Virus record (IMG/VR): IMGVR_UViG_3300044452_000162
Coordinates: 1 to 25,119 of that record
Length of the DNA stretch: 25,119 bases
Source: a virus
Taxonomy: Duplodnaviria > Caudoviricetes
Direction: 5' to 3' (one strand)
Shown: piece after piece, positions 1,735-23,179 of the stretch
Layout: the number at the start of each line of letters is the position of its first letter
Numbering within the stretch: the first letter of the stretch is position 1
Made by a program: the position numbers and the translations under genes
Notes under the pieces: model-generated
The model's input: the letters and a program-made list of their open reading frames with translations, nothing else
What the model was told of the DNA's origin: nothing
The model's database searches: none

Positions 1735-3708
1735 TTAAACTGAATTGATCGAAGGGGCTATTGATTGTGCCAGCAGGATGCCCCCGGCGGAATTTGGGTG
1801 TAAATTGTCAGATGTGTATTCAGATAAATTTATCAGATTTATCCCGCTGATGGAAAAGAGGTCGCAAACTGGGGTGCCAAAAAGCATGCAAACGTCTTTG
1901 ATAGCCTGCGCGTATTCAGGCAGCGTTGCCCCCACGCCGTTTGCTGCTGGATAAACGGGCTGGGATGAGAAAGCGCCGCGAATGAGTGGGGTGCTGAAGA
2001 TGATTCGGACTGTTGGCTTGAGCGTATACAGCGATTCTAAAGTTTGAAATACATCATTGTAAAAAGACTCTGAAACAGATCCGCTGAATGCATCGCTAAT
2101 GCTGCCTAGCTGCCGATTGCCACCATAGTCATTAGTCCCGCCAAATATGTGGATTATATCAGTATTCGCCAGATCGCCAGATGTCAGATCTGTGCCAGCA
2201 GCGTCTTTCGCCATGTCCCTTACGCTGCGACCCGATACCGCGAAGTTATTATCGGTAATCAATCCGGTTCTTAGGAGTGTTTCCGTGATGAAAAATCCAG
2301 CTACCGATATGCTGTCACCTACCCAGCTAACTTTTTTGCCTTGCCAAGGCCGGCTATTTCGATCGAAAGGCTTGAAACCTGCCAAAGGCGCCGCTTGCCG
2401 CAGCAACTGAAACCGGTCTATGAATGTGATATTAAAAATATGCAGGCGAACAAAGTGTGCGTTGCTCGGGGCTGTAAAGGCGGTGTTGTCTTGTACGGAA
2501 GTATTCGATGAGATGAATTCTCTATCGATGTCATAAAAACAAACCGCATTTGAATCATGGGATATAATTAATTGAGAACCTGGAAGAATATCAATGAAAT
2601 CAGTTGTAAAATAGTTACTGAATCCATAAGTGGACCCTGTAGTTGGGTTGATTGCCGTGTCAATCGCTGAGCGATCCGGGTCATGCGCATTAAAGTCTTG
2701 CGGCAAGCTGGCGAGGAGGGCTGTTTTTGATTTAATAAATGCCGAAGAAAGCGTTGCGGTGGGGCTTTGTGAATGCGGGGTGTACTGCACAGGAAGTGTA
2801 TCACTTGCTACCAGCATCAATTCATCGGATGCTGACAGTGGTGTTACATGCATTCGAATATAATACCCCCTTTCAGGAACAACGAACGAAACATCTTTGG
2901 TGATCGACATTTGCATGATGTGATTTTTATTTTCGTCGTAAAATGACATGGCGTTTGAGTCATGACTTGAAATCCATGACTCACCTGGATTTACCAGAAT
3001 GAATTCAGTGGTTATATAGTCTGAAAAACTGTACGTTGACCCGTTGGCAGCAAGCGCCGTGTTTTCCATCGCGTCATCAGGGTCGAAATAATTGAATTCA
3101 GAAGAAACGGTGCTTTTAATCCCGTTACGCACTATTTCCAAACGACTGCGCATAGCTGATGCTCGGTCATCTGGACTATACGAAACGAACTGATCGGGCA
3201 GTTCAGAGCCATTCACAAAAACCTGTTCAGTTAAGTCAGCATTTAAGGCTGAAAAGCGGATGTAGGTTGCATTTGCAGGTGCGACAACAGATCCGCCCGC
3301 GCTAACCCCTGCTACATAACTAATGAAATTTCTTAGATAATCATAAAAAGCAACATGCGCAACTTGGTTCGCAAATGAGTAATTTTCATTCGCGAAAATA
3401 AAAATAAATGGCGTCGCCTTCCATCCACTCTGGGAGGCAGGGTTGCCGTTTGAGAGAATATATGTATCATCAATCAATTGAGAGTCGTCTAATAAATTCT
3501 GCTGCTTCGGATAGCGATTTGATAAATCAAACGTGCGTCTGGTCACGGCTTCGTCGTGGATTGCTTTTGCGAGGGATGGCACGACGCCAGAATCGGTCGA
3601 TACGGTGTCCGTTTCGTCGCCATGCACCATTTCATGCAATAAATCAGCATCGGTGCTCACTTGCGTGGCTTTGGTCGTAATCGTATTGAGGTCATCTTGC
3701 AGGGTCAT
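1735..3708 (-). CDS. Putative receptor-binding protein/tailspike: N-terminal virion anchor, three repeated beta-rich modules, C-terminal SGNH/GDSL esterase
   Basis: Anchor motif LHEMVHGDETDTVSTDSGVVPSLAKAI; three ~85-130 aa repeats (T.FI...P, FYD....I, P..A.YIR); SGNH blocks WVGDSI, AVSG, GGTNDY, DNLHPN. Visibly more AT-rich than its neighbours. Confidence 0.8.
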   Translation of the reverse strand: MTLQDDLNTITTKATQVSTDADLLHEMVHGDETDTVSTDSGVVPSLAKAIHDEAVTRRTFDLSNRYPKQQNLLDDSQLIDDTYILSNGNPASQSGWKATPFIFIFANENYSFANQVAHVAFYDYLRNFISYVAGVSAGGSVVAPANATYIRFSALNADLTEQVFVNGSELPDQFVSYSPDDRASAMRSRLEIVRNGIKSTVSSEFNYFDPDDAMENTALAANGSTYSFSDYITTEFILVNPGESWISSHDSNAMSFYDENKNHIMQMSITKDVSFVVPERGYYIRMHVTPLSASDELMLVASDTLPVQYTPHSQSPTATLSSAFIKSKTALLASLPQDFNAHDPDRSAIDTAINPTTGSTYGFSNYFTTDFIDILPGSQLIISHDSNAVCFYDIDREFISSNTSVQDNTAFTAPSNAHFVRLHIFNITFIDRFQLLRQAAPLAGFKPFDRNSRPWQGKKVSWVGDSISVAGFFITETLLRTGLITDNNFAVSGRSVRDMAKDAAGTDLTSGDLANTDIIHIFGGTNDYGGNRQLGSISDAFSGSVSESFYNDVFQTLESLYTLKPTVRIIFSTPLIRGAFSSQPVYPAANGVGATLPEYAQAIKDVCMLFGTPVCDLFSISGINLINLSEYTSDNLHPNSAGGILLAQSIAPSINSV

Positions 3709-4208
3709 GTGACTAGGCTCGCTGGAAAGTCAGTGTGAACAGTGGTGTGCAATTGATCGGCGGCGGGATTGATTAAATCAACCATTTCGCCCAGATCGAG
3801 GTCGTCAGTCAGCAAGGCATCGAGGTCGTCTTTGCTCAGCTGCGTTGGCTTACTGATTTCCAAAGTCAGGGAGATTTCCCAGTACTTGCCCGCACGCTTA
3901 GCGCGTGGAAACGATGCCTCTAAAAAGCGGGCGCTGTGCGTTGATTCAATGCCGGCGCTGGTCTGCAAGGTAACCCCGGTTGCCCATGCTGCGCCGGCTG
4001 ACAAATAATAATCATACCAGGCCTCAAAAATTGCCAGTTGATCGGTGGTCATTATCCATGTCGCACGACAACGAACCGGCACCGTCGTGAAGCGACGGCG
4101 CACGATCGCGTGACCATACTCGCGCTCGGTTCGGATCGTCGCCGCTAACGGCTGATAATCCTGACGCCGCCCACACAGCGGCAACGTGGCTGGCCAAGCG
4201 GTACTCAT
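3705..4208 (-). CDS. Distal tail protein, gpM-like
   Basis: AWPATLP, IRTE.EYG....RRRFT, W.MT.DQLAIFEAWY...L.AGAAW, ARF, WEIS..LEI; directly after the tape measure gene with ATGA overlaps. Confidence 0.75.
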   Translation of the reverse strand: MSTAWPATLPLCGRRQDYQPLAATIRTEREYGHAIVRRRFTTVPVRCRATWIMTTDQLAIFEAWYDYYLSAGAAWATGVTLQTSAGIESTHSARFLEASFPRAKRAGKYWEISLTLEISKPTQLSKDDLDALLTDDLDLGEMVDLINPAADQLHTTVHTDFPASLVT

Positions 4209-6436
4209 CGCGACAAGCCCCCCGCCACCGGCAGGCCACGGCGTTCAAGCGCACTATTTAACGGCCCACGGCGTGATAAAATATCGCCCGCCAACATCGA
4301 GGCCACCTGCCGGCCAAAAGTCAAAATGCGGCGCCCTTCGCCGTCCGTGCTCTCTTCCGGCGGCGGTCCGTAATTGTTGATGATGATCGGCTGGCCGCCG
4401 ATTTGATGCGACGGCACCACCTCGCCACGCTCGCCGGCAAACATCCATTGCTTGCCCCCGGCGCGCCAAATCTCGGGCCCGTTTTCACCGACACGCGCCG
4501 TCGATCCGGCCGGCACAATCCCGCCATGCATCCGCCCACCGGCATACGGTGTGGCAGCAATTTGGGCGGCTGCGCCGAGACCGGCCGACAAATTGATACC
4601 GGCCAACACCTGCGCAAAGGTGGTATTCAATGGCCCGCCAAATTTCGTCGCCATCGCCAAGGTATTCGAAAACGCCAACCACGCATTGGCCGTCGCGCTG
4701 GCCACCGCAAACACCTTGTGCGCGTAAAATGCGGCCCGGTTGTTCTCGGCAGCTTGTTCCATCAATTGCGCAAGGTTTTGGTTCGCGTCGGCAATGCCGC
4801 GCACGTACAGGTCATTTTCCTGCAACTTGGCCCGGCGCTCTTGCGCGGCGCGCTTCATTGCCTGTTCGGCATGGTTCTTCAGGTTATTGTAGAAGTTCTT
4901 GGCCATCGATCCGGCCTGCTTGTAAAAGCTCGACATCGATTGCAGGTAAGATTTCCGGGCCGCATCACCACCCTTGCCCGGTGAATGAATCGAGGCCGCT
5001 TTGCCAGTCGTTTCTTCGGCCGCTGCATCAACGTCCGCGAACCATCCACGGATGGTTCGGCGCCAGCTTGCGGATCGGCTTCCGAATGTGCTGACCAACG
5101 CATCAAGCCAATTTGTTTCCTCTGCCAACTTCAGGCGTTGCGTACGCACGATGTCGTCAAGCCACGGGGTTTGAACCTTCGCATTGCCAATCGTGTTGAT
5201 TTTATCAACAAAATTATCAGTCGCATGCGATAAGTTATCAACGGCTTCATTCAGTTGTTCTTTGAGTTTGTCTGCCCCAAACCTGAAATCTGCGCCGATG
5301 GCGAAGAGCTCTGAAGCTATCGCGTCCATGCCCAGCTGGCTCGCTAGACCTGACATGGCCAAAGCAAATTCACGATAATCCTTGAGCCAATTGTTCATCG
5401 TATCGCGGAAGCCAAGCTGCATTTCAGCCCAAATTTTCTTGGCACCAGCGAACGCTAAATCAAAGCCGGCGATGATCGTATTGCCGATGTTTTGCATTTC
5501 GGACCAGAGGCGCTTGCGCATCTGCACGGTCACACGAATGAATTCCCAGGTCCATACTCGGGCTTGATAAAATGCTGTGCGCATGGCCTGCCAAAGAATG
5601 CGAAACCGTTGGCTCCAATCGGAAAAAAATGTCATCGTTTTTTCAACGCTGATACCAATTTTTTCGACAATCGCCGGCATGCCTCCGGCCTCGCGGGTCC
5701 ACATCACAATTTTATCAGTGATCACTGCGATCCCTGGAGCCAGGCGCACCGCCAGTTGTCTGGCAAACCCAGCCGCAATCTGGCCCATGCGGGCCAGGTT
5801 CGTGCCGGCCTGCTCGATGCGCGCGGCATCAAAGCGGCTCACGGTCAAGCCAAGCTCTTTGGCTTCTTGCGCCGCCCCATCCAGGTCTTCGCGCATGACG
5901 TCCAACATGGCGCTACCGCGTTGGCCCCAGATCTGCATAGCAATGCGCACGCGATCGCTTTGGGTGTCCAGGCCATTCATGGCTTCGGCGATCGCCTTGA
6001 ATTGATCGGCCGGTTGCATGCGGGCCAGCTCTGCGGCGTTCAGGCCCAGTTCATCCATGATCTTCACATAGGTGCCCATGCCGCTCTTGGCTTCGGACAC
6101 AAAGCGCGTTTGGCGCGCCAGGGATTTGTTGACCATTTCGCCAGATTGGCTGGCTAGCGTGGCGGCATGATGCAGGCCGGCCAGGCCTTCAGTGGATTGG
6201 CCCAGACGATCGGACACCTTGGCTAAGTCGTCTACCGCATCTAACTGACGTTTGACGGCATACCCCAGGCCAGCTGCTGCAGCGGCTCCGGCCACAGCTG
6301 CCGCTTTCACCGTCATTTTACTTTGCTGAGCAAACTTTTTCCAATGCTGCTGGGCATTTTTCAACCCCGCTTTCAGCTTAGCCGCATTCGCGGTCAGCTG
6401 TAAGGCGACGGTTCCAGCAGTCAGTTGTTTGCCCAT
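4205..6436 (-). CDS. Tail tape measure protein
   Basis: 743 aa, Ala-rich and helical; N-terminal G.VALQLTANA..LK.GL; C-terminal GGRMHGGIV....RVGENGPE and IIINNY motifs; follows the tail chaperones. Confidence 0.9.
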   Translation of the reverse strand: MGKQLTAGTVALQLTANAAKLKAGLKNAQQHWKKFAQQSKMTVKAAAVAGAAAAAGLGYAVKRQLDAVDDLAKVSDRLGQSTEGLAGLHHAATLASQSGEMVNKSLARQTRFVSEAKSGMGTYVKIMDELGLNAAELARMQPADQFKAIAEAMNGLDTQSDRVRIAMQIWGQRGSAMLDVMREDLDGAAQEAKELGLTVSRFDAARIEQAGTNLARMGQIAAGFARQLAVRLAPGIAVITDKIVMWTREAGGMPAIVEKIGISVEKTMTFFSDWSQRFRILWQAMRTAFYQARVWTWEFIRVTVQMRKRLWSEMQNIGNTIIAGFDLAFAGAKKIWAEMQLGFRDTMNNWLKDYREFALAMSGLASQLGMDAIASELFAIGADFRFGADKLKEQLNEAVDNLSHATDNFVDKINTIGNAKVQTPWLDDIVRTQRLKLAEETNWLDALVSTFGSRSASWRRTIRGWFADVDAAAEETTGKAASIHSPGKGGDAARKSYLQSMSSFYKQAGSMAKNFYNNLKNHAEQAMKRAAQERRAKLQENDLYVRGIADANQNLAQLMEQAAENNRAAFYAHKVFAVASATANAWLAFSNTLAMATKFGGPLNTTFAQVLAGINLSAGLGAAAQIAATPYAGGRMHGGIVPAGSTARVGENGPEIWRAGGKQWMFAGERGEVVPSHQIGGQPIIINNYGPPPEESTDGEGRRILTFGRQVASMLAGDILSRRGPLNSALERRGLPVAGGLSR

Positions 6437-13674: not shown

Positions 13675-13895
13675 CAGATACCGCCAATCTGCGCCCGGCG
13701 GAAGGGCCCACCGTTTTGCGCGCGGCTGATCTGCTTCTCCAGCTGGCGCCGCTCGCGATACAACGTTGCAAGCTGGGCCCGCTCGGTCGACGCGCCATCT
13801 TCGTGACTGTATTTTTGGCCACCCGTCTCGACCCGCGCAATCGCGGTTTCGATATTGGCTAAACGTGTCTGTAGGACTTCAAGCGAAGCAGGCAT
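13674..13895 (-). CDS. Head-to-tail joining protein gpW-like
   Basis: L..RLA.IETAI..VETGGQ.YS...G....RA.L..LY.ERR.LE..I pattern; immediately before the portal gene. Confidence 0.8.
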   Translation of the reverse strand: MPASLEVLQTRLANIETAIARVETGGQKYSHEDGASTERAQLATLYRERRQLEKQISRAQNGGPFRRAQIGGI

Positions 13896-13950: not shown

Positions 13951-14007
13951 TTTTTTTGCCCCTGTTTTGAACCCCATTGACCCTGTTTTGACCCCTTTTT
14001 GAGGGTC
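13951..14007. repeat. Five helically phased T-tract/TTG(A/C)CCC-like repeats
   Basis: The G of each TTG falls at 13958, 13969, 13979, 13990 and 14001 (spacing 11,10,11,11). Confidence 0.7.
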
Positions 14008-14056
14008 TTTCAAAAATTAAATGTGTGACAGAAAAGCCTTGTTTTTGTGTTTTCTG

Positions 14057-14071
14057 TGTTACAATAAAACC
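14057..14071 (+). promoter_or_regulatory. Extended -10 promoter of the TA operon, probably leaderless
   Basis: TG-T-TACAAT at 14057-14065, then 6 nt to ATG 14072; no SD. Confidence 0.6.
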
Positions 14072-14308
14072 ATGTTGATCAATTGGAACGACCACAACCG
14101 CGCACACATCGCCAAGCACGGCGGTAGCGAAGCGTTGTTCGAACTGGTGCTGGCCAACAGCGATCAGTGGGTGCTTTCCGAGCCGCTCTATGGTCACACG
14201 GCCATTGCAACCATTGATGGGAAGGAATGGCAAGCAATTTTCATTTTCATCCATGACCTTCAGGAAGTCACCCCGATCACGATCTATCCAACAGAAAGAG
14301 GTGCTTAA
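14072..14308 (+). CDS. Type II toxin, BrnT/RelE-fold-like
   Basis: 78 aa, MLINWNDHNRAHIAKHGGS resembles the W...N..H..KHG.S start of BrnT-like toxins; C-terminal PITIYP strand; toxin-first order. Confidence 0.65.
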   Translation: MLINWNDHNRAHIAKHGGSEALFELVLANSDQWVLSEPLYGHTAIATIDGKEWQAIFIFIHDLQEVTPITIYPTERGA

Positions 14309-14309
14309 A

Positions 14310-14660
14310 ATGAAACATAAACTCGACGAAAAAACAGCTCGGAAAACAGCTCAGAAAATAGCTCACAAAATGAAAAACCTCACCGAGGAACAGATTGCTG
14401 CCAATCGGCGTGCCGCAGCACGCGTGCCGCGCAACCCTGATGGGTCCATCGACATGGAACAAGCCATTGCCGACGGTGAAGAAATGCGGCGTGAACACAT
14501 CGAGGCCCGCAAACGTGGCCGCCCTGTTGGCCCCCCCACCAAAGCCCGCAGCATCCGCCTGACCGTCGATCTCTGGGAACAAGCCGAAGAAAAAGCCCAA
14601 GCCAACGGCCAAAGCCTGAATGCCTGGGTCGCCGGCCTGGTGCAAAGATCAATCGGCTGA
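14310..14660 (+). CDS. Antitoxin with C-terminal ribbon-helix-helix (BrnA/HicB-like)
   Basis: ATG 14310 with SD AGAGGTG, 1 nt after the toxin stop; RGRP followed by SIRL..DLW......A...GQSLNAWV RHH pattern. Confidence 0.75.
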   Translation: MKHKLDEKTARKTAQKIAHKMKNLTEEQIAANRRAAARVPRNPDGSIDMEQAIADGEEMRREHIEARKRGRPVGPPTKARSIRLTVDLWEQAEEKAQANGQSLNAWVAGLVQRSIG

Positions 14661-14662
14661 CC

Positions 14663-14704
14663 GCCACCAGGTGGCTGCCCCGCTAACCCTTTCAAAGCGG
14701 GGCA
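14663..14704. terminator. GC-rich inverted repeats at the convergence of the TA operon and the minus-strand genes
   Basis: GCCACC-A-GGTGGC (14663-14675) and TGCCCCGCT-11nt-AGCGGGGCA (14676-14704); no clear U-tract. Confidence 0.4.
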
Positions 14705-14707
14705 ACA

Positions 14708-14726
14708 CCCAAACCAAGTGTTGGGC
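14708..14726 (+). other. attI-like simple recombination site
   Basis: CCCAAAC-CAAGT-GTTGGGC: degenerate L box, 5-bp spacer and GTTRRRY R box, the same geometry as attI1 (CCCTAAA-ACAAA-GTTRRRY); lies at the head of the attC-like array. Confidence 0.5.
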
Positions 14727-14735
14727 GGCACTGGT

Positions 14736-15023
14736 TTACGCAGGCATTTCCCCGTAAGCACTGCATTCTGGTTGCTCGCGGGGGTCGTACTCTTCCCAGT
14801 CGTCGCATAACTTATCTTCATCAGGGACTCTATCGTCTAGTGGTGTAAAGTCATTCTTCCAGAACACCCTCGGGACCAATTTCCCTATATCGTGCACAAG
14901 AATCCGCTGCAATGTCTCTGGGTTTTGCGCGCAATCTTCCTCGGTGTAAATTTTGGTCGGTTTGCCTGTGCGTATAATCCCGCTACGCATTGCACATCGA
15001 CGCTTTGCTGTTTCGTAGTCCAT
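14736..15023 (-). CDS. Cassette-borne hypothetical protein, weak resemblance to DUF2829/Tad2
   Basis: ATG 15023 with SD GAAGGAGA; 95 aa; M.Y.TA......SGIIR.G and P.ED.L.DDWE.Y termini. Confidence 0.55.
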   Translation of the reverse strand: MDYETAKRRCAMRSGIIRTGKPTKIYTEEDCAQNPETLQRILVHDIGKLVPRVFWKNDFTPLDDRVPDEDKLCDDWEEYDPREQPECSAYGEMPA

Positions 15024-15047
15024 AATTTTCTCCTTCGATTTCGCCCC

Positions 15048-15110
15048 ACCCAACAACGTGTTCAAGAAATCGGAGCCGCTAACGCGGCCCGCTTAACGCT
15101 GAGGTTGGGT
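15048..15110 (+). other. attC-like site A (63 bp)
   Basis: ACCCAAC-AACGT-GTTCAAG-AAATCGGAGCCGC-TAAC-GCGGCCCG-CTTAAC-GCTGAG-GTTGGGT: RYYYAAC/GTTRRRY cores, 5- and 6-bp spacers, extrahelical C at L'' position 4, second unpaired A, 4-nt bulge. Confidence 0.8.
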
Positions 15111-15466
15111 TACTTCTTGTTCTTACGACGCGTCTCGGCGTGTAGCTCGGCGTCGTATCGTAAATGGCAACGCTGGCACAGTGCGGCCAAGTTGGCGTGG
15201 TCGTTATTGTTGGTGTCGTGGTCAAGGTGCGCGATGGTAAGAACAACTCGGATTGGCTTGTTGTATAAACCAATGTCAAAACCGCGACATGTTTGATTGT
15301 CGTTGTCCTCGATATAGATATAATTTGCGCCATTAATTTTTGACCTGCGGATCATTTTATGATTTCTTACTCCGCAATTTTCGCAGCAATCGCCGGATCG
15401 CTTTAGTATTGCCGGACGAATCACTGTTTTCCAGTCGGTCGGGTATTTTGAATAATCGCAAGGCAT
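15110..15466 (-). CDS. HNH endonuclease (cassette-borne)
   Basis: DYSKYP.DW...IR..IL.R....CENCG and LTIAHLDH...NN...NL.ALCQRCH..YD; ATG 15466 with SD GAGG. Confidence 0.9.
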   Translation of the reverse strand: MPCDYSKYPTDWKTVIRPAILKRSGDCCENCGVRNHKMIRRSKINGANYIYIEDNDNQTCRGFDIGLYNKPIRVVLTIAHLDHDTNNNDHANLAALCQRCHLRYDAELHAETRRKNKK

Positions 15467-15493
15467 AATTTCCTCTGCTTTCCGATGGGCGTA

Positions 15494-15544
15494 ACCCAAC
15501 AAATGCGTGCAGGTGAGCAAGCCACCTGACGCTTGTGGTTGGGT
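15494..15544 (+). other. attC-like site B (51 bp, unusually short)
   Basis: ACCCAAC-AAATG-CGTGCAGG-TGAGCAAGCCA-CCTGACG-CTTGTG-GTTGGGT: 7/5/8...7/6/7 box layout, extra base at L'' position 4 and a second unpaired A. Confidence 0.75.
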
Positions 15545-15553
15545 GGCGCTGGG

Positions 15554-16033
15554 TTACTGGACCGCCGCTCGACCGTTCGCGTGCTCAAACGCCGCGGCGA
15601 CTGAATCGGTGATCAAGCGCTTGTTTTCATCAGGTGTATTCCGTGGACTGCATTGGCAGGTTGGCAAATCAGGGTATCCGTGCCATTTGCCATGGATGCC
15701 ATGCCAGCCATCTGACTCATGCAGCTCAATCAATGTTTTTGTGACCTGCTCCTGATCGCCTTTTACTCCGGCAAAAGCATGGCGATCAAACATAAAACAG
15801 CACTTCAATATCATTGGTTCATCATTGATTTTCTTTTGGGCATCTTGATATGAGTCAAACCCTAATTCACGGGCCACCGCATTCATGCAATCAATATGCT
15901 GCACCTGATCTGCCGAAATATGATCTTCCTCCACTAGATGATAATTAACGCGATTCAATGCGTCAATATCACCTGTTCTTGCCTGTTTCTTTAATCGTTT
16001 GGCTTGTTTTTTAATCATTGTTATCTGTGACAT
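15554..16033 (-). CDS. Hypothetical protein with N-terminal glyoxalase-superfamily-associated helical domain
   Basis: IKKQAKRLKK....NAVARELGFDSY pattern; ATG 16033 with SD AAGGA; AT-rich. Confidence 0.6.
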   Translation of the reverse strand: MSQITMIKKQAKRLKKQARTGDIDALNRVNYHLVEEDHISADQVQHIDCMNAVARELGFDSYQDAQKKINDEPMILKCCFMFDRHAFAGVKGDQEQVTKTLIELHESDGWHGIHGKWHGYPDLPTCQCSPRNTPDENKRLITDSVAAAFEHANGRAAVQ

Positions 16034-16078
16034 TTCATTTTCCTTTTGCAATTATTTCATTGCTTCGACGCTCGCTGC

Positions 16079-16312
16079 TCATGGGTCAGCCCTAATCTTT
16101 GGTGCGTTCGATTCTTCGACGAGCGTGAACTTGCGGGTGTATTCCTGAACCATGCTGAAATCGGTGACAGGATCGATGGCGGTGACAGTGTATTCTGCCG
16201 TGATTTGGATAGGCTCACCGATTTCCAAGGTGATCACCGCCTTACGGCAACCGTGCACGGGGATGCCAAGTTGGCGCAAGAGCTCCGGCCCAAGCACGCG
16301 ACTGCTGTTCAT
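16079..16312 (-). CDS. Hypothetical protein (77 aa)
   Basis: ATG 16312 in an ATGA overlap with the upstream stop; globular-looking sequence (MNSSRVLGPELLRQLGIP...). Confidence 0.55.
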   Translation of the reverse strand: MNSSRVLGPELLRQLGIPVHGCRKAVITLEIGEPIQITAEYTVTAIDPVTDFSMVQEYTRKFTLVEESNAPKIRADP

Positions 16313-16626
16313 GCCTGCCCCCCGGTCACCTGAATGGTATCGCCGCCTGATGGAGTGATGATACGGCGCAGCGGGGTGCCGCAGGCGCCGCAAATCAATG
16401 AATACACCAGGTTGCCATTCTCCAGCTTGCGCTTGCGCTTTTGCAGCGGCGTCATGCCACGACCGCAGCATGGGCCAATAATGCCCATGGCGGGCGGTTG
16501 CGGGACCTCGACATGAAGCGTTGGTTCTGCCTGAGGTTGGGCAGCCAAGTCGGTTTTGCGGGGGCGCCCACGGCGGGTGCCGCTGGATTGGGCATGCTGC
16601 GGGTTTTCAGTCTGTTTGTGTGGCAT
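16309..16626 (-). CDS. AT-hook plus zinc-ribbon protein, possible Ogr/Delta-like late regulator
   Basis: ATG 16626 with SD AAGGAG; RRGRPRK; PCCG...CGACG Cys pairs. Confidence 0.55.
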   Translation of the reverse strand: MPHKQTENPQHAQSSGTRRGRPRKTDLAAQPQAEPTLHVEVPQPPAMGIIGPCCGRGMTPLQKRKRKLENGNLVYSLICGACGTPLRRIITPSGGDTIQVTGGQA

Positions 16627-16643
16627 GTCGGGTGCTCCTTGTT

Positions 16644-16862
16644 TCATGCGCTCAAGTAGAAAAACAGCCAAGCAATGGCACCTGCGAGGTACCGGGTGGC
16701 TGCAGGGTTGGCTGCGGGGATGGCGCGGGTTGGCGGCAGGTTGATTGGCCGGATTGGCCTCGGCGTGCGCACGCGGGCGCCGATTGGGCCAATGGGGCAT
16801 TGATTCCTGATATAAATCACCGGTTCTGGCGATAATGCATCCGTTTGCGGGGGCGTGCTCAT
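16644..16862 (-). CDS. Possible small Pro-rich protein with hydrophobic C-terminus
   Basis: ATGA overlap with the terL stop; low complexity, may be non-coding. Confidence 0.3.
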   Translation of the reverse strand: MSTPPQTDALSPEPVIYIRNQCPIGPIGARVRTPRPIRPINLPPTRAIPAANPAATRYLAGAIAWLFFYLSA

Positions 16863-18889
16863 GCCGCCCCCCCGACGCGGCCAATAATGCCGGATCGACG
16901 TTGGTGTTGGGTGGTATCAAACCAGCCGCGTATATTCACCACGGCCATTTGTTGCACTTCACAATCAAACCAATGGTTGTCGGTGCGTACGTGCATGGTG
17001 CCTTTTTCGTCTTCCCACTCGCGCGGGCGCCAGATCATGCGGAGCTGGCGACGGCCACGGGTGGAAACCATCTCTTGGACTCGCTCTTCTGAGGTCAACG
17101 ATTCAGTATAAAATTCCGGGGCATCGGGTGGGATAAACCAGGCCTGCGGGGCAGCCTGCATCGCGGCCGACAGGTAATCGCGGTGGCTGTGGGCATTGAA
17201 AAACCAAACCCGTTTCAGGCCGGCCAGCTTGGCGCGGTTTTGTGGGCTTGATTTTATTTCTGACCACGGGTTGTCAGGGGCCATGGTGCCTGATCCGGCA
17301 ATCGATAAGCGGCGCTGGGGTTGTTTGGCGCACCATTGCCGGATGAATTTTTGCATCGGACCGTTGGCGCTGTCCATGGCGCTCAGGTCAATGCCGCGCG
17401 GTTGACCCCCCATCACCCATTCACGTTCCAGCAGCTGATCGCAGGCGTCAAAGCCGTTGACGTGACCGGCCTCGACCAAGTAGGATTCGCCGCTTTGTAG
17501 CCAGGCACGAACCACGTACGGGAACCATGATCGCAGCGGATCGATACCTTGCTGGTCCAGGGTCGCCAAGACGCGCCATGGCACCACCGGGCATTCGCTG
17601 TGCCGGTACGTCAGGCCCTCGGGCGTGGCCGGCAGCTGCACGTTTTCGACAGCTTCCTGATCGATGCCGCCGGCGCTGGCAATGTACGGGTCGCCGTCCC
17701 AGCCATTCACAAAAGCTTCGCGATCAGATTCACCGGCGCCGTGCGCCTCGATGCGTTTAGATACATACCGCGAAAGCGTGATAAATGCGGAATACAAACT
17801 ATTCATATGGCCACTCCGGTTACGGGCCCGCAATGGCGCCACGTGGTCTGGATTGATTTGATGTTGCCGATCGTATTCCACTACCGGGCGCCAGCTGCCG
17901 CCGGCCTTGTGTTGATCGTCAGCCGTCCAGATTCCGGCCAGCCAGCCGCCTGATTCAGAATACCACGGCACCACACAGGCCAGGTGCACGGCCTGGCGTA
18001 TTTCCTGCGTGGTTAAAGGCGTGCTGCAGGTTGGACATTTCCAACGGCCCAGATCTTCGTTCTCGATGGCGTCCGGATCGGTGCATTTCTCCAAAGCCAT
18101 CAGGCAATCAGGTTGCAGCCAGTGGTGGGCGCCGCAGTGCGGGCAGGCAACGTGCAGCCGTTCATGCGTACCCCGGCACAAGCGCGACCAGCCGTGATTG
18201 CTGACCGTGGTGGGCGTAGTCACGCCAAGAATAAATCGAGAATGTGGGAAGCCTTTTTGACGGTCTTCGACCAAGGCAATCGGGTTGCCTTCCCCCTGGC
18301 AGTCGATCGGGAAGGCGTCGAATTCGTCCAGTGCGACCAAGGGCAGGTCGTACGATCGCAGGTCTTGGGCGGAGTTACCGACCATCCAATGCAAGTCGCA
18401 CGTTGATAGCTTCCAGACTTTCACGCCCAGGCGGCGCTCAACCTCGGTCTGGCCCCCTGGTAATAATTCCCGCAGGCGCGGGGTTAATTCAAACATCGGT
18501 TGCAAGCGCGTGGTCTGCGCCTTGCGCAGGTCTTCGTTGCGCTGCAGGACCATGCCCATCGATCGCGGGCGCACGGCTGCGGTCCAACCGACCAATGGCT
18601 GCACCAAGCCTTGCGTTTTGCCCAACTGATTGGCGCAAACGTTGTAGATTGATTCAACCAGGTGCGCATGCGGATCATGGTCCAGCGGCTGGCCACTGAT
18701 GCGGGCCTGCGCGATGTTGAGCCAATGTTTCCAGTAAGGTGTTAAATCAGGATTGTACGGCGCCGGGCCCGATCCCCGGCTAATTTTCAAATGATCCCCC
18801 AGCCAATCATTGATGTTAGCACCGCGATCTTCGCGGACCCTGGCCTGCATGTCGCGGGCCTCATTGAAAATTGCCTTGGCAATGCTCAC
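16859..18889 (-). CDS. terL: Terminase large subunit, lambda GpA family
   Basis: YNPDLTPY Q-motif, Walker A ANQLGKT, Walker B VALDEFDAF, GVTTPT, CPHCG...CPTC zinc motif, C-terminal nuclease with LDQQ, MDS.NG, DNHWFDCEV. Confidence 0.95.
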   Translation of the reverse strand: MSIAKAIFNEARDMQARVREDRGANINDWLGDHLKISRGSGPAPYNPDLTPYWKHWLNIAQARISGQPLDHDPHAHLVESIYNVCANQLGKTQGLVQPLVGWTAAVRPRSMGMVLQRNEDLRKAQTTRLQPMFELTPRLRELLPGGQTEVERRLGVKVWKLSTCDLHWMVGNSAQDLRSYDLPLVALDEFDAFPIDCQGEGNPIALVEDRQKGFPHSRFILGVTTPTTVSNHGWSRLCRGTHERLHVACPHCGAHHWLQPDCLMALEKCTDPDAIENEDLGRWKCPTCSTPLTTQEIRQAVHLACVVPWYSESGGWLAGIWTADDQHKAGGSWRPVVEYDRQHQINPDHVAPLRARNRSGHMNSLYSAFITLSRYVSKRIEAHGAGESDREAFVNGWDGDPYIASAGGIDQEAVENVQLPATPEGLTYRHSECPVVPWRVLATLDQQGIDPLRSWFPYVVRAWLQSGESYLVEAGHVNGFDACDQLLEREWVMGGQPRGIDLSAMDSANGPMQKFIRQWCAKQPQRRLSIAGSGTMAPDNPWSEIKSSPQNRAKLAGLKRVWFFNAHSHRDYLSAAMQAAPQAWFIPPDAPEFYTESLTSEERVQEMVSTRGRRQLRMIWRPREWEDEKGTMHVRTDNHWFDCEVQQMAVVNIRGWFDTTQHQRRSGIIGRVGGAA

Positions 18890-20103: not shown

Positions 20104-20461
20104 TAGACACACTTGGACAAAATCTCTCTCTATTCTTTCTTTGGAAAAAAAAGAAAGATTGAACTCGCGCGTGCGCGCGCACATGTACGCGCGCGAGGCT
20201 CGATTTTGTGTTTCTGTGTCTAAATTATAAAAATACTGTGTTTTTATTGGGTTTTCGTAATCTCGAATAGACACACTTGTAGACACACTTAGACACAGAA
20301 TCAGGTAAACAAACGCAATCCTGTGTTTATTCATTTGAACCCATATGGGTTCAAGATAGGTCAGGAGAGACGTGGTTTTATTTGTTACAACACCAGAAAA
20401 CGACACAGAATAACGAATGTGTACACGATTTTGTGTCGTTCTGTGTCTACAGTTGTGTCTA
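20104..20461. repeat. Iteron cluster, putative replication origin
   Basis: (TA/AC)GACACA(CTT/GAA) direct copies at 20104, 20268, 20280, 20290, 20400; inverted copies at about 20212, 20429, 20439, 20452; AT-rich spacers; directly downstream of the primase-helicase. Confidence 0.75.
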
Positions 20462-23179
20462 TTCATTTGGACCTATCCCCTTATGTGAATGGGTCAATTT
20501 CACGCCGTCATGATCTGTAGCCTCGTTGAAATATTCGCCGGAATTCGGGACTAAATCAGGGCGGCAATTCTCGTGGTCGTGGCGTAATCGAAGGCCGGCA
20601 AAGCCGGTCACCGAACGCCCTTTCTCCGTGTCATAAACGGCCGCATCGCTAGCACCGCGACCTCGTAAGCGCTTAAACAAGTTCTTCGCACCTAACGGCC
20701 GTGCACCGTTCTCTTGGCACCATTCTGCATAAGCGGCGCGAAATCGACCGCGGGTAATTTGATTGCCGTCACCCCAGATCGTTGATTCAGCCAGAAAATC
20801 GCCAATCGGGTCTTGCTCCTTCCGGTACATGTGCGACCACTCCTGCACGCATTCGGGCTCTTCCAGGCTGCGGTTTTCCCAATAAGCGATTGAACCACGG
20901 ACCATCCACGCCAACACCGCCTGCTGACCCTTGGGGTCCGTGGTCAGGTGCTTGAGCAGGTCCTTATCTTTGGTCTTGGGCTTATGATCACAGCGCACCA
21001 TCCGCAGGCGGCGCCAAAAACCGCTATCGGTATCCTGCACGGCCGGCAAGTCATTAGCCACCATCCAGATTTTGAATTTCGGTCGATAATCAAAAGGATG
21101 GCCAAATTTGTGCTGCGCCTCCAGCACACTGTCACCCGTGACACGTTTCACGATATGCGAATCAAATTGCTTGCCTTCAGGAGCCTCTTCACATGAAACC
21201 AAGCGCATTTTGCTGATCTTGGCAAAGGTCCATTTGTGATCCCCACCATCGTTTAAGAATGCCTCAAACGGAATAGAGCTGTGATAGGTGCCCATCACGG
21301 CACCTATTGCTTGCACAAAAGTCGATTTCCCGGTACCGCCTGGTCCTGTGATGAAGAAAAAGCCCTGCTCACCAACATCACCTGACATGGAATATCCAGC
21401 CGCTCGGGCCAGAAAACCCTGAAGCAATACATCATTGCCAGTTAATTCATTCAGGAACCTCATCCAGCGATCGTCCTGGGCGTAAAAATCGAATTCAATA
21501 TCACACAAACGGGTAATGCGATCAGCGGGGTCGTGTTTTTGAAGTTTACCCGTTCGTAGATTTATGGTGCCATTTCGAACCGAAAATAACTCTTCATTAA
21601 AATCTAAGTCATCAGCAAGAACCGACACCCCATCAATGGCTGCCGCTCGTTCCAGGCTATTTTTAATTGGCCGATCATTGCGGTTTTTAATCCGCCAACG
21701 CTCAATCTCGACGGCCTTCTTACCGTTGCCGTATTTGTATTCCCATTCGTATTCTGCCGCGCAGGTCGTGTTAATCGCATCGTCAATCCACCGCTGCACC
21801 GTGCGATTCTTGTCCATTTCCCAATGCGTGCCCTGCCAGGTCAACCACGCCGACCAAGTGTGACAAAACAGCACTCGATCGCCATAGACATGGAAAAATC
21901 GCTGGGCATTACCGTGTTCATTCAACTCAAAGCGCGGTGGTTGATCTGGAATTTCCCGCACAAATTGATCCGGCACATCATCGATATTACCAGCATCAAC
22001 ATCATCAAAACCCCCAGGCCCCCCAAAGTCCTTGCGGCGATTCTGTGTTCCTGTGTCGTCGGCGGCAGCGGCGGTATCGGCGGCGGGCTGGCGATGCTGG
22101 TAATGCAGATGACGTACATCAGAACCACGATATTCAGCCGCTAACGCTGCTGCAGCGGCCGTCGCATCGCCGTTGTATTCCAACTGCGTTAGCAAATCGA
22201 ACAAGGAATAGCCCTGTTCTTCCTGCAGCGGCGCACAGCTGCTGCTGTACACATAAAACACACGTTTGGACTCGTTCCAGGTCGCGCTGGTGCCGGTCGA
22301 CTTACCTGGTCGGGTCCAGTGCTCGTTGTCGCCCTTCTCACAGTCGAAGGCCCAGCCATGCCTGGTCAGCAATTCATGGTGGTTGCCTTCATCGGCATAG
22401 CGATCGCCAGGCCGGCGCGTGTCACCAGTGACCTTTGGCTGGCGGGGTGCGGTCCGCTTTGACGCAGCGCGTTGTCGCTCGCCCCCAGGTCGCTGATCCG
22501 ACAACCGCTGCGCCGCGGTAATCAAGACAGCCCGTTCTTCGGCGGTCAGCTGTGGCATATCGGCCAAAGCCACCTGGCCATCAACCTGGTACCCAGCCGA
22601 TGGTGCCACCACCAACCAACCACCCAGGCCGCGCGTTTCGATTGCTCCGGCTACAGCAAAATATTGCCCGCCGATTTGCATCGCCTTGTATTGCTTCGGT
22701 GCATCACCGAAGGCCACCATACGCACATCATTGGTCCCAATTGATCCGTGAATCGTCACCGAAACCCCGGCCCGTTCATGCGTGCTGGTGCCTTCGGACC
22801 ACGGCAAATACCAGTTGGTCAACTTGCTGTTTTTTTCTGGCGCATCACACCGAAAAACCACATGCTTGCCACCAGACGGCGACCTCTCGATGTAGCAGCG
22901 ATCAAGCAGGCCTGGCGCCTGGCGCTCTACCTCCACGGCCCAGGTCGCAAAAGCCGCCCCGGCCAAATCAAAATCGATCGCCTCAACGCCAGCAAAACCG
23001 CAGATCACACCAACCGCTTCACAACCGGCCTGCCACTGCTTCCATTCATCTGCCGTCGGCGAGCGCTGCTGGTACTCCCGCCACGACGGCACCGCCGGCG
23101 TCTTGGTGGCTACATCAGCCGGTAAAACACATAACCCCGCGCGAAAAGCCGCGCGGGCCACACTCAAACAATCAGCCAT
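20459..23179 (-). CDS. Primase-helicase: N-terminal Prim-Pol, D5_N and SF3 (P4 alpha/D5-like) helicase
   Basis: K.PA..SW.EYQ, GVICG, AIDFD, SPSGGKHVVFR, ETRGLGG.LVVAPS; NEHGNAQRF, NGTINL.TG, Walker A GPGGTGKST, K.VTGD, F.Y.PKFK, NDLP, GFWRR; SD AGGAGG. Confidence 0.93.
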   Translation of the reverse strand: MADCLSVARAAFRAGLCVLPADVATKTPAVPSWREYQQRSPTADEWKQWQAGCEAVGVICGFAGVEAIDFDLAGAAFATWAVEVERQAPGLLDRCYIERSPSGGKHVVFRCDAPEKNSKLTNWYLPWSEGTSTHERAGVSVTIHGSIGTNDVRMVAFGDAPKQYKAMQIGGQYFAVAGAIETRGLGGWLVVAPSAGYQVDGQVALADMPQLTAEERAVLITAAQRLSDQRPGGERQRAASKRTAPRQPKVTGDTRRPGDRYADEGNHHELLTRHGWAFDCEKGDNEHWTRPGKSTGTSATWNESKRVFYVYSSSCAPLQEEQGYSLFDLLTQLEYNGDATAAAAALAAEYRGSDVRHLHYQHRQPAADTAAAADDTGTQNRRKDFGGPGGFDDVDAGNIDDVPDQFVREIPDQPPRFELNEHGNAQRFFHVYGDRVLFCHTWSAWLTWQGTHWEMDKNRTVQRWIDDAINTTCAAEYEWEYKYGNGKKAVEIERWRIKNRNDRPIKNSLERAAAIDGVSVLADDLDFNEELFSVRNGTINLRTGKLQKHDPADRITRLCDIEFDFYAQDDRWMRFLNELTGNDVLLQGFLARAAGYSMSGDVGEQGFFFITGPGGTGKSTFVQAIGAVMGTYHSSIPFEAFLNDGGDHKWTFAKISKMRLVSCEEAPEGKQFDSHIVKRVTGDSVLEAQHKFGHPFDYRPKFKIWMVANDLPAVQDTDSGFWRRLRMVRCDHKPKTKDKDLLKHLTTDPKGQQAVLAWMVRGSIAYWENRSLEEPECVQEWSHMYRKEQDPIGDFLAESTIWGDGNQITRGRFRAAYAEWCQENGARPLGAKNLFKRLRGRGASDAAVYDTEKGRSVTGFAGLRLRHDHENCRPDLVPNSGEYFNEATDHDGVKLTHSHKGIGPNE

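Follow-up and report, generated by a model that had tools for sequence, protein, structure and literature searches.

A temperate phage that carries a nuclease gene between two integron-type hairpins raises the question of how this gene came to lie there, and whether it arrived as a mobile cassette. The window, by which we mean the whole stretch of DNA that was analyzed, is the entire virus record of 25,119 nucleotides (nt), estimated to be 36% complete. Its minus strand encodes a D5-type primase, a GpA terminase, a lambda-type portal, a protease-capsid fusion and a head-tail adaptor. Between the terminase (ending at 16859) and the head-tail adaptor (starting at 13895) lie several small genes, including orf3, the HNH gene and orf1 on the minus strand and a toxin-antitoxin (TA)-like pair on the plus strand, and this is where a short, integrase-less array is found. 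When searching for sister phages, the terminase returned a single locus with 25% identity and the portal none, and a search of INPHARED gave short HNH matches only, in 8 records. Proteins encoded at the locus are also on record from a contig of 34,947 nt. Two repeat-containing stretches were also observed: imperfect short direct repeats rich in C/T runs (e.g., CCCTGTTTTGA, present twice) at 13960 to 14060, in the gap that separates the TA-like pair from the start of the head-tail adaptor, which are possibly operator or packaging-related, and an imperfect inverted repeat (62 nt, 76%) at 20265 to 20464, where the sequence from the primase to the ParB-domain gene is richer in AT.

The two hairpins, designated sites A and B, are well-formed attC sites on the plus strand. 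Site A (15048 to 15110) consists of R'' (15048 to 15054), a 5-nt spacer, L'' (15060 to 15067, with an extra base at 15063), L' (15091 to 15097), a 6-nt spacer and R', with the G|TT crossover at 15104. Site B (15494 to 15544) is built in the same order, with R'' (15494 to 15500), a 5-nt spacer, L'' (15506 to 15513, extra base at 15509), a 6-bp stem, L' (15525 to 15531), a 6-nt spacer and R' with G|TT at 15538. Both end in the inverse core/core pair ACCCAAC ... GTTGGGT (fitting RYYYAAC/GTTRRRY), and their L'' and L' boxes pair at 6 of 7 (A) and 7 of 7 (B) positions. In an attC scan of the window, A and B alone combined complete R pairing (4/4) with L pairing of 6/7 or better. When 60 dinucleotide shuffles were scanned in the same way, on average 0.017 such sites appeared, and in no shuffle were there two; scans of this kind overlook some true sites, since only one of the three sites of the published phage array TJE1 was called and the other two were located via short motifs. 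The folds of A and B had z-scores from −3.4 to −3.7 on both strands, with at most 2 of 200 shuffles being equally stable, and an Rfam search of the sites gave no match at E ≤ 1. Lying on the same strand and 434 nt apart, the two sites fall within the definition of a CALIN (at least two attC sites on one strand within 4 kb). As to a second extra base, a T six pairs from the first, the bottom strand of site B reads, by eye, T-N6-C, with the T placed at the loop edge by the fold, and attC sites of the T-N6-C type are described as efficiently excised by IntI1 (PMC3053210). Site A has a 4-nt bulge between its two extra-base positions, which might lower recombination. Compared with its relative in sequencing run X4, it appears to carry three more A residues after L'' (15068 to 15070), giving this bulge.

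The HNH gene (15110 to 15466, minus strand) encodes 118 amino acids with CxxC and H-N-H motifs, has a GAGG 5 nt upstream of its ATG, and matches the phage HNH endonucleases of phrog_1571 over its full length (E = 5e-25). It may act as a terminase cofactor, like HK97 gp74. Its TAA stop lies within the 10-bp right end of site A (15104 to 15113). The gene together with site B constitutes what we call cassette 2, with inferred limits 15105 to 15538 on the plus strand and 10-bp complementary ends, and this unit is almost certainly a cassette. The gene has 455 relatives at E ≤ 1e-20. The flanks of 34 HNH relatives were compared, and complementary ends of at least 7 bp were found for two, L054 (7 bp; of ambiguous polarity and counted solely as a cassette) and L059 (11 bp). 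Non-cognate end pairs reached 7 bp in 1.2% of 1,190 controls for HNH and 0.7% of 1,056 for orf1. The count for HNH, like that for orf1 (2 of 32, see below), is a lower bound, because several loci had truncated or misplaced gene ends (e.g., L014, L018, L048, L063, and L065). The locus L001, with a possible core upstream of HNH and no partner end, was left out of the count; a GGTC tandem run (2900 to 2985) lies there within an apparent decayed attC upstream of this closest viral HNH relative (55% identity). The gene studied here thus differs from other PHROG 1571 members in being packaged as a cassette, as 32 of the 34 relatives lack such ends. The initial annotation had proposed that HNH homologues without flanking cores would speak against its reading; they are indeed the rule, but since the HNH family is an ordinary phage gene, this test is ill-posed as a refutation.

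The neighboring cassette 1 (inferred limits 14721 to 15104, plus strand) holds the inverted orf1 and site A, and its ends, the core at 14720 and the left end of site A, are complementary over 6 bp and, after one mismatch, 2 more. orf1 (14736 to 15023, minus strand; 95 amino acids) belongs to a phage gene family of 14 proteins at 32 viral loci, two of which have complementary ends of at least 7 bp (L016, 9 bp, and L038, 10 bp). The family is therefore seen in three settings: bare, as a normal cassette (L038) and as an inverted cassette (L016). While sequence searches of Pfam and PDB gave no match for orf1, three measures, each below a firm threshold, provide a weak lead toward a Tad2-like anti-defense fold: ESM features of 0.89 relative to Tad2-like clusters, a best Foldseek E value of 0.18, to Tad2, and a VIA comparison with Tad2 giving Z 4.6, rmsd 3.1 and 54 aligned residues, with the next unrelated row at Z 2.7.

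On its left, the array is bordered by site 0 (14655 to 14726, plus strand), where the leftmost crossover core, G|TTGGGC (14720 to 14726), is preceded by a 9-bp hairpin (14676 to 14704). Site 0 has no paired L boxes and was not called as attC by our scans; by eye it resembles the attI1 L box and core as quoted in PMC12901181, and it may be an attI-like site or a decayed attC. Further left lies the TA-like pair (14072 to 14660), on the strand opposite the late genes, with genes at 14072 to 14308 (78 amino acids) and 14310 to 14660 (116 amino acids). The second matches an Arc-like repressor (E = 3e-7) and weakly HicB (E = 0.0014, below the cut-off), no family was found for the first in the searches made, and together they have the look of a toxin-antitoxin pair. 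The TGA stop of the antitoxin sits within an inverse-core-like heptamer (14655 to 14661), so that these two genes might constitute an old, normally oriented cassette, site 0 being what is left of its attC after decay. No sigma-70-like sites were listed on the plus strand between 14017 and 14997; a Pc-type promoter on that strand would in any case be unable to express the minus-strand genes of the array. On the other side, the right flank (15539 to 16033) holds orf3 (15554 to 16033, minus strand; 159 amino acids), for which one weak partial match, no protein relative beyond itself and no function were found in our searches. No complementary inverse core was detected for this flank in 16001 to 17200 (best 4 bp). 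It may represent an older cassette minus its attC, or a native target gene.

The initial annotation had drawn attention to swapped flanks around the HNH gene, and the observation itself was verified. The right end of site A is the 10-bp reverse complement of the left end of site B (15491 to 15500), and the left end of site A (15046 to 15054) pairs with the right end of site B (15538 to 15546) over 9 bp, compared to only 7 bp for each site in place, as counted in Watson-Crick pairs outward from AAC/GTT. The near-identical direct repeats at 14720 and 15538 were likewise confirmed, with cores agreeing at 9 of 10 positions and the match extending to 17/20, a level reached by only 2 of the 258,121 pairs of GTT-starting 20-mers in the window, this pair among them. 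Taken alone, the swap's gain of three pairs over the 7 present in place has a p of about 0.016, and the swap is therefore convincing mainly when combined with the attC anatomy. Swapped ends are, moreover, the normal, textbook signature of any cassette array: TJE1 has 8, 8 and 8 bp swapped versus 3, 5 and 4 in place, L038 has 10 and 10 versus 3, 5 and 5, and L059 has 8, 8 and 10 versus 4, 5, 3 and 3. The second match here, at 9 bp, exceeds the equivalent 3 to 7 bp of those arrays because cassette 1 and the right flank start alike, being identical at 17 of their first 20 nt. For the same reason, this match does not show that HNH was inserted into site A. The swap is also symmetric, in that circularizing 15499 to 15054 on the minus strand with site A gives 10 bp as well, and by itself it is neutral as to which hairpin belongs to the HNH gene. 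What stands of the earlier claim, a circle of 15105 to 15538 integrated at G|TT, is the integron-type cassette with a G|TT junction, favored by the bulge position and by a variant allele that leaves the window sequence at 15104 (see below); reading a former circle from the swap was overstated, since such ends are ordinary and symmetric with respect to site A.

Which strand is the attC top strand is better judged from the anatomy. In both sites the extra base falls in the left arm on plus (L pairing of 6 versus 4 for A and 7 versus 3 for B), and the plus strand of site A matches TJE1 attC1 at 18/20 positions over R''-L'', as read off the alignment. This places the attC top strand on plus, and all three minus-strand genes are thus antisense to it, unlike typical cassettes, where the gene lies on the top strand and is followed by its attC. 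The initial annotation made no mention of this inverted orientation. With plus polarity, by which body B travels with HNH, each gene has at its 5' end the hairpin that would belong to it, and we regard this polarity as fairly probable. The same inversion was found at 5 sites in L016, where one further call overlaps, and at 4 sites in L059, while gene orientation is normal in L038 and TJE1. A common reading phase across the junctions fails here, the stops lying 16, 6 and 16 nt from the G. Three of the related loci have features of their own. In L038, about six attC-type cassettes with small phage-like genes (1850 to 3620 and 3693 to 4763) lie in normal orientation, facing an Xer-like tyrosine recombinase. 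In L016 (460 to 4560), the small genes of a replication region are separated by many inverted attC-like sites and half-sites, with a 40-nt stretch repeated at about 1905 and 4540 and some start codons within hairpins. The inverted array of L059 (2813 to 4690) comprises HNH, two small genes and a DNA cytosine methyltransferase-like gene, and adjoins lysis-like genes.

Assembled contigs of eight sequencing runs (X1 to X8) hold the region, with X7 and X8 covering it in patches; six of the eight are possibly the source of the record itself, so the runs are not independent. Five of them (X2 to X6) contain a second, diverged HNH allele on a shallower contig, with the same 11 listed differences in all five (9 of 11 synonymous) and a middle part 18 nt longer. 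This allele corresponds to protein P0016 (124 amino acids; 39/39 C-terminal residues), whose N-terminal extension enters the variant right body. On the left, agreement of the X2 variant contig with the window breaks off exactly before G15104, and the 24 loose letters beyond this point (depth 6) resemble an attI or the right-hand half of a different attC. The left ends in X3, X4 and X6 are site-A-like apart from mismatches or a small number of loose letters, and that in X5, also site-A-like, matches to 15098, where the contig stops. On the right, X2 and X3 both pass into one different attC body after 15502. The X4 contigs contain another two hairpins that resemble site A and whose flanks differ on both sides, and in X2 a 151-nt contig matches 14691 to 14725 and then runs into other sequence exactly at the site 0 core; the X2 left end and this contig (depth 2) are short and shallow evidence. 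The expectation that the HNH and attC unit would occur in other contexts was thus borne out for the diverged allele, whose ends are those of the window allele but whose neighbors differ, placing the cassette in more than one position. The identical allele was not seen elsewhere. The presence of this second allele in the same communities points to recent or ongoing cassette exchange. An empty allele (15104 joined to 15539), a circle junction and a skip joint across the cassette, the first of them proposed as a check by the initial annotation, were not listed in the contigs of any of the eight runs, and contigs drop rare forms. The 15104-15539 joint had been taken as the allele before insertion; it is equally the expected excision product.

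As far as the record goes, the array is not part of a complete integron, as it holds no intI: the tyrosine recombinase family PF00589 had no match in the 25-kb record, at least 10 kb on each side of the array, and no recombinase was found in the record of L016. The recombinase beside the L038 array is Xer-like, scoring 41.7 bits against an IntI cut-off of 265. Weak searches for a host array of this type gave 0 matches in GTDB with the site A pattern, and 42 GTDB loci and 1 viral locus with a looser pattern, none of them within a called attC. In viral contigs, the core pattern matched 119 loci, and no attC was called at any of these positions.

Taken as a whole, these observations are best explained if the HNH gene arrived as the circular cassette 15105 to 15538, with hairpin B as its own, which we consider likely. 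An integron-type integrase acting in trans, either a host IntI or one encoded in the missing part of the phage, would join circular cassettes at G|TT. Cassettes would enter at or near site 0 (14720), the fixed left partner, with orf3 probably the oldest arrival, followed by HNH and then by orf1 as the newest. The attC of orf3 would since have been lost; loss of attC through slippage is mentioned in 10.1101/2022.09.11.507474. By this order, 14720 would have been joined to 15539 before HNH arrived, and excision of the cassette would join 15104 to 15539. The genes may be reversed so that a leftward phage transcript, rather than Pc, reads them from the far end of the array, each with its own ribosome-binding site and a stop codon 6 to 16 nt from the crossover. 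The explanation counts in its favor the relatives found as cassettes (2 of 34 for HNH and 2 of 32 for orf1, compared to about 1% of non-cognate pairs), and the several left neighbors and single right body of the variant allele, together with the site 0 contig, agree with plus polarity. Counting against the explanation are the lack of an empty allele, circle junction or skip joint in the contigs and of a tyrosine recombinase in the record. Against the plus polarity, the window allele and the variant have different bodies on the B side, which it does not predict, and a search over 2.5 kb on the R'' side of the outermost L059 hairpin gave no partner end, the best pairing being 5 bp.

The L059 array end suits better a model of mirrored polarity, where the cassette is 15499 to 15054 on the minus strand, i.e., the gene followed by its own hairpin A, and a recombinase of the other strand, possibly an Xer-like phage or host enzyme, crosses over on the R'' side. 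Gene orientation would then be ordinary for its own system, and a hairpin does follow each of the three genes (B, A, and site 0). The 10-bp swap is equally compatible with this model, the left end of the variant allele resembles site A in four runs while its B-side body is a different one, and an Xer-like recombinase adjoins the L038 array. However, bulge and spacer polarity match a top strand on plus, site 0 lacks paired L boxes, the same allele occurs with two kinds of left end and one right body, and recombination of the top strand by IntI1 is given as 1,000 to 10,000 times rarer (PMC5027507). We therefore consider this mirrored polarity rather unlikely, though clearly ahead of the readings below.

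It is improbable that the cassettes were first normal and that each gene was later inverted between its own 10-bp inverted ends, by recombination between the bottom strand of one attC and the top strand of the next, and kept so for the phage transcript. The ends being perfect inverted repeats, such a flip would leave no scar, and relatives of orf1 occur in both orientations (normal in L038, inverted in L016), but the inversion of all called L016 and L059 sites and of both HNH alleles would require many rare events, and the flipped joint was absent from the contigs of the eight runs. Slightly less probable still is that the whole array was acquired in one piece through homologous or illegitimate recombination, its donor being another phage or a host integron, with the scars made elsewhere. 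Such uptake is suggested for phage CALINs by Qi et al. (PMC9892861), and it agrees with a record without integrase and with the otherwise flanked site-A-like hairpins of X4, whereas the cargo families are mostly ordinary phage genes, other sequence follows site 0 exactly at the core, and the two patterns, in weak searches, found no host array of this attC type in GTDB. Finally, one terminator-like stem does lie inside site A on the minus strand, and most HNH relatives lack such flanks, which would suit terminators or chance repeats beside an HNH gene moved by homing. Given that R boxes, L boxes, spacers and bulges are all attC-like, that shuffles never yield two sites, and that the variant junctions coincide with the cores, we regard this as highly improbable. 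Arrival of HNH as a circular cassette with hairpin B thus remains the preferred explanation.

Phage arrays of attC sites are already in print. The locus shares with the phage CALINs of Qi et al. (2023, PMC9892861), exemplified by Tetrasphaera phage TJE1, the presence of at least two attC sites without integrase in a phage and small, phage-type cargo. The swapped end complementarity and the resemblance of site A to TJE1 attC1 are further likenesses, but the TJE1 genes run with the top strand, whereas the array genes here run against it. Divergent attC directions in P12002L are mentioned in that paper, and arrays of inverted genes do not appear in its examined text; nor was this layout found in any paper within the mostly open-access literature searched. 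With integron attC sites, as described in the available text of Bouvier (2009, PMC2727003), Nivina (2016, PMC5027507), and Larouche and Roy (2011, PMC3053210), the hairpins have in common the R''-L''-L'-R' anatomy, extra bases in the L'' arm, 5 to 6-nt spacers and the G|TT core. Site A, at 63 nt, is inside the quoted length range of 57 to 141 bp, and site B, at 51 nt, is slightly under its minimum. Unlike integron cassettes, the genes here are antisense to the top strand, with no intI in the record and no sigma-70-like site listed that could serve as a Pc. The SALINs, small CALINs and attG insertions described by Loot et al. (10.1101/2022.09.11.507474) similarly include two-cassette clusters far from an integrase, explicable by an integrase in trans, and the attC loss by slippage in that system could account for orf3. 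They differ from our locus, on the evidence of the text seen, in its phage setting, its inverted genes, and two ends that are both cassette-start-like (17/20) rather than a bare GWT target.

As the swap alone is textbook, the value of the locus rests on the inverted layout and on the second allele with the same ends and other neighbors. It offers a small, testable case of genes opposing attC polarity, which the standard model of expression from Pc does not predict. We tentatively suggest that phages may hold their own pool of integron-type cassettes made from ordinary phage genes (nucleases, methylases, and possibly anti-defense genes), reversed relative to attC for phage transcripts from the far end and still exchanged at G|TT among co-occurring phages, and that such arrays could be a birthplace of new cassettes. 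How cassettes are first made has been termed a long-standing question (10.1101/2024.07.02.601719), and since the families found here include plain phage genes (32 of 34 and 30 of 32 loci) alongside cassettes of either orientation, the origin of cassettes becomes traceable in them.
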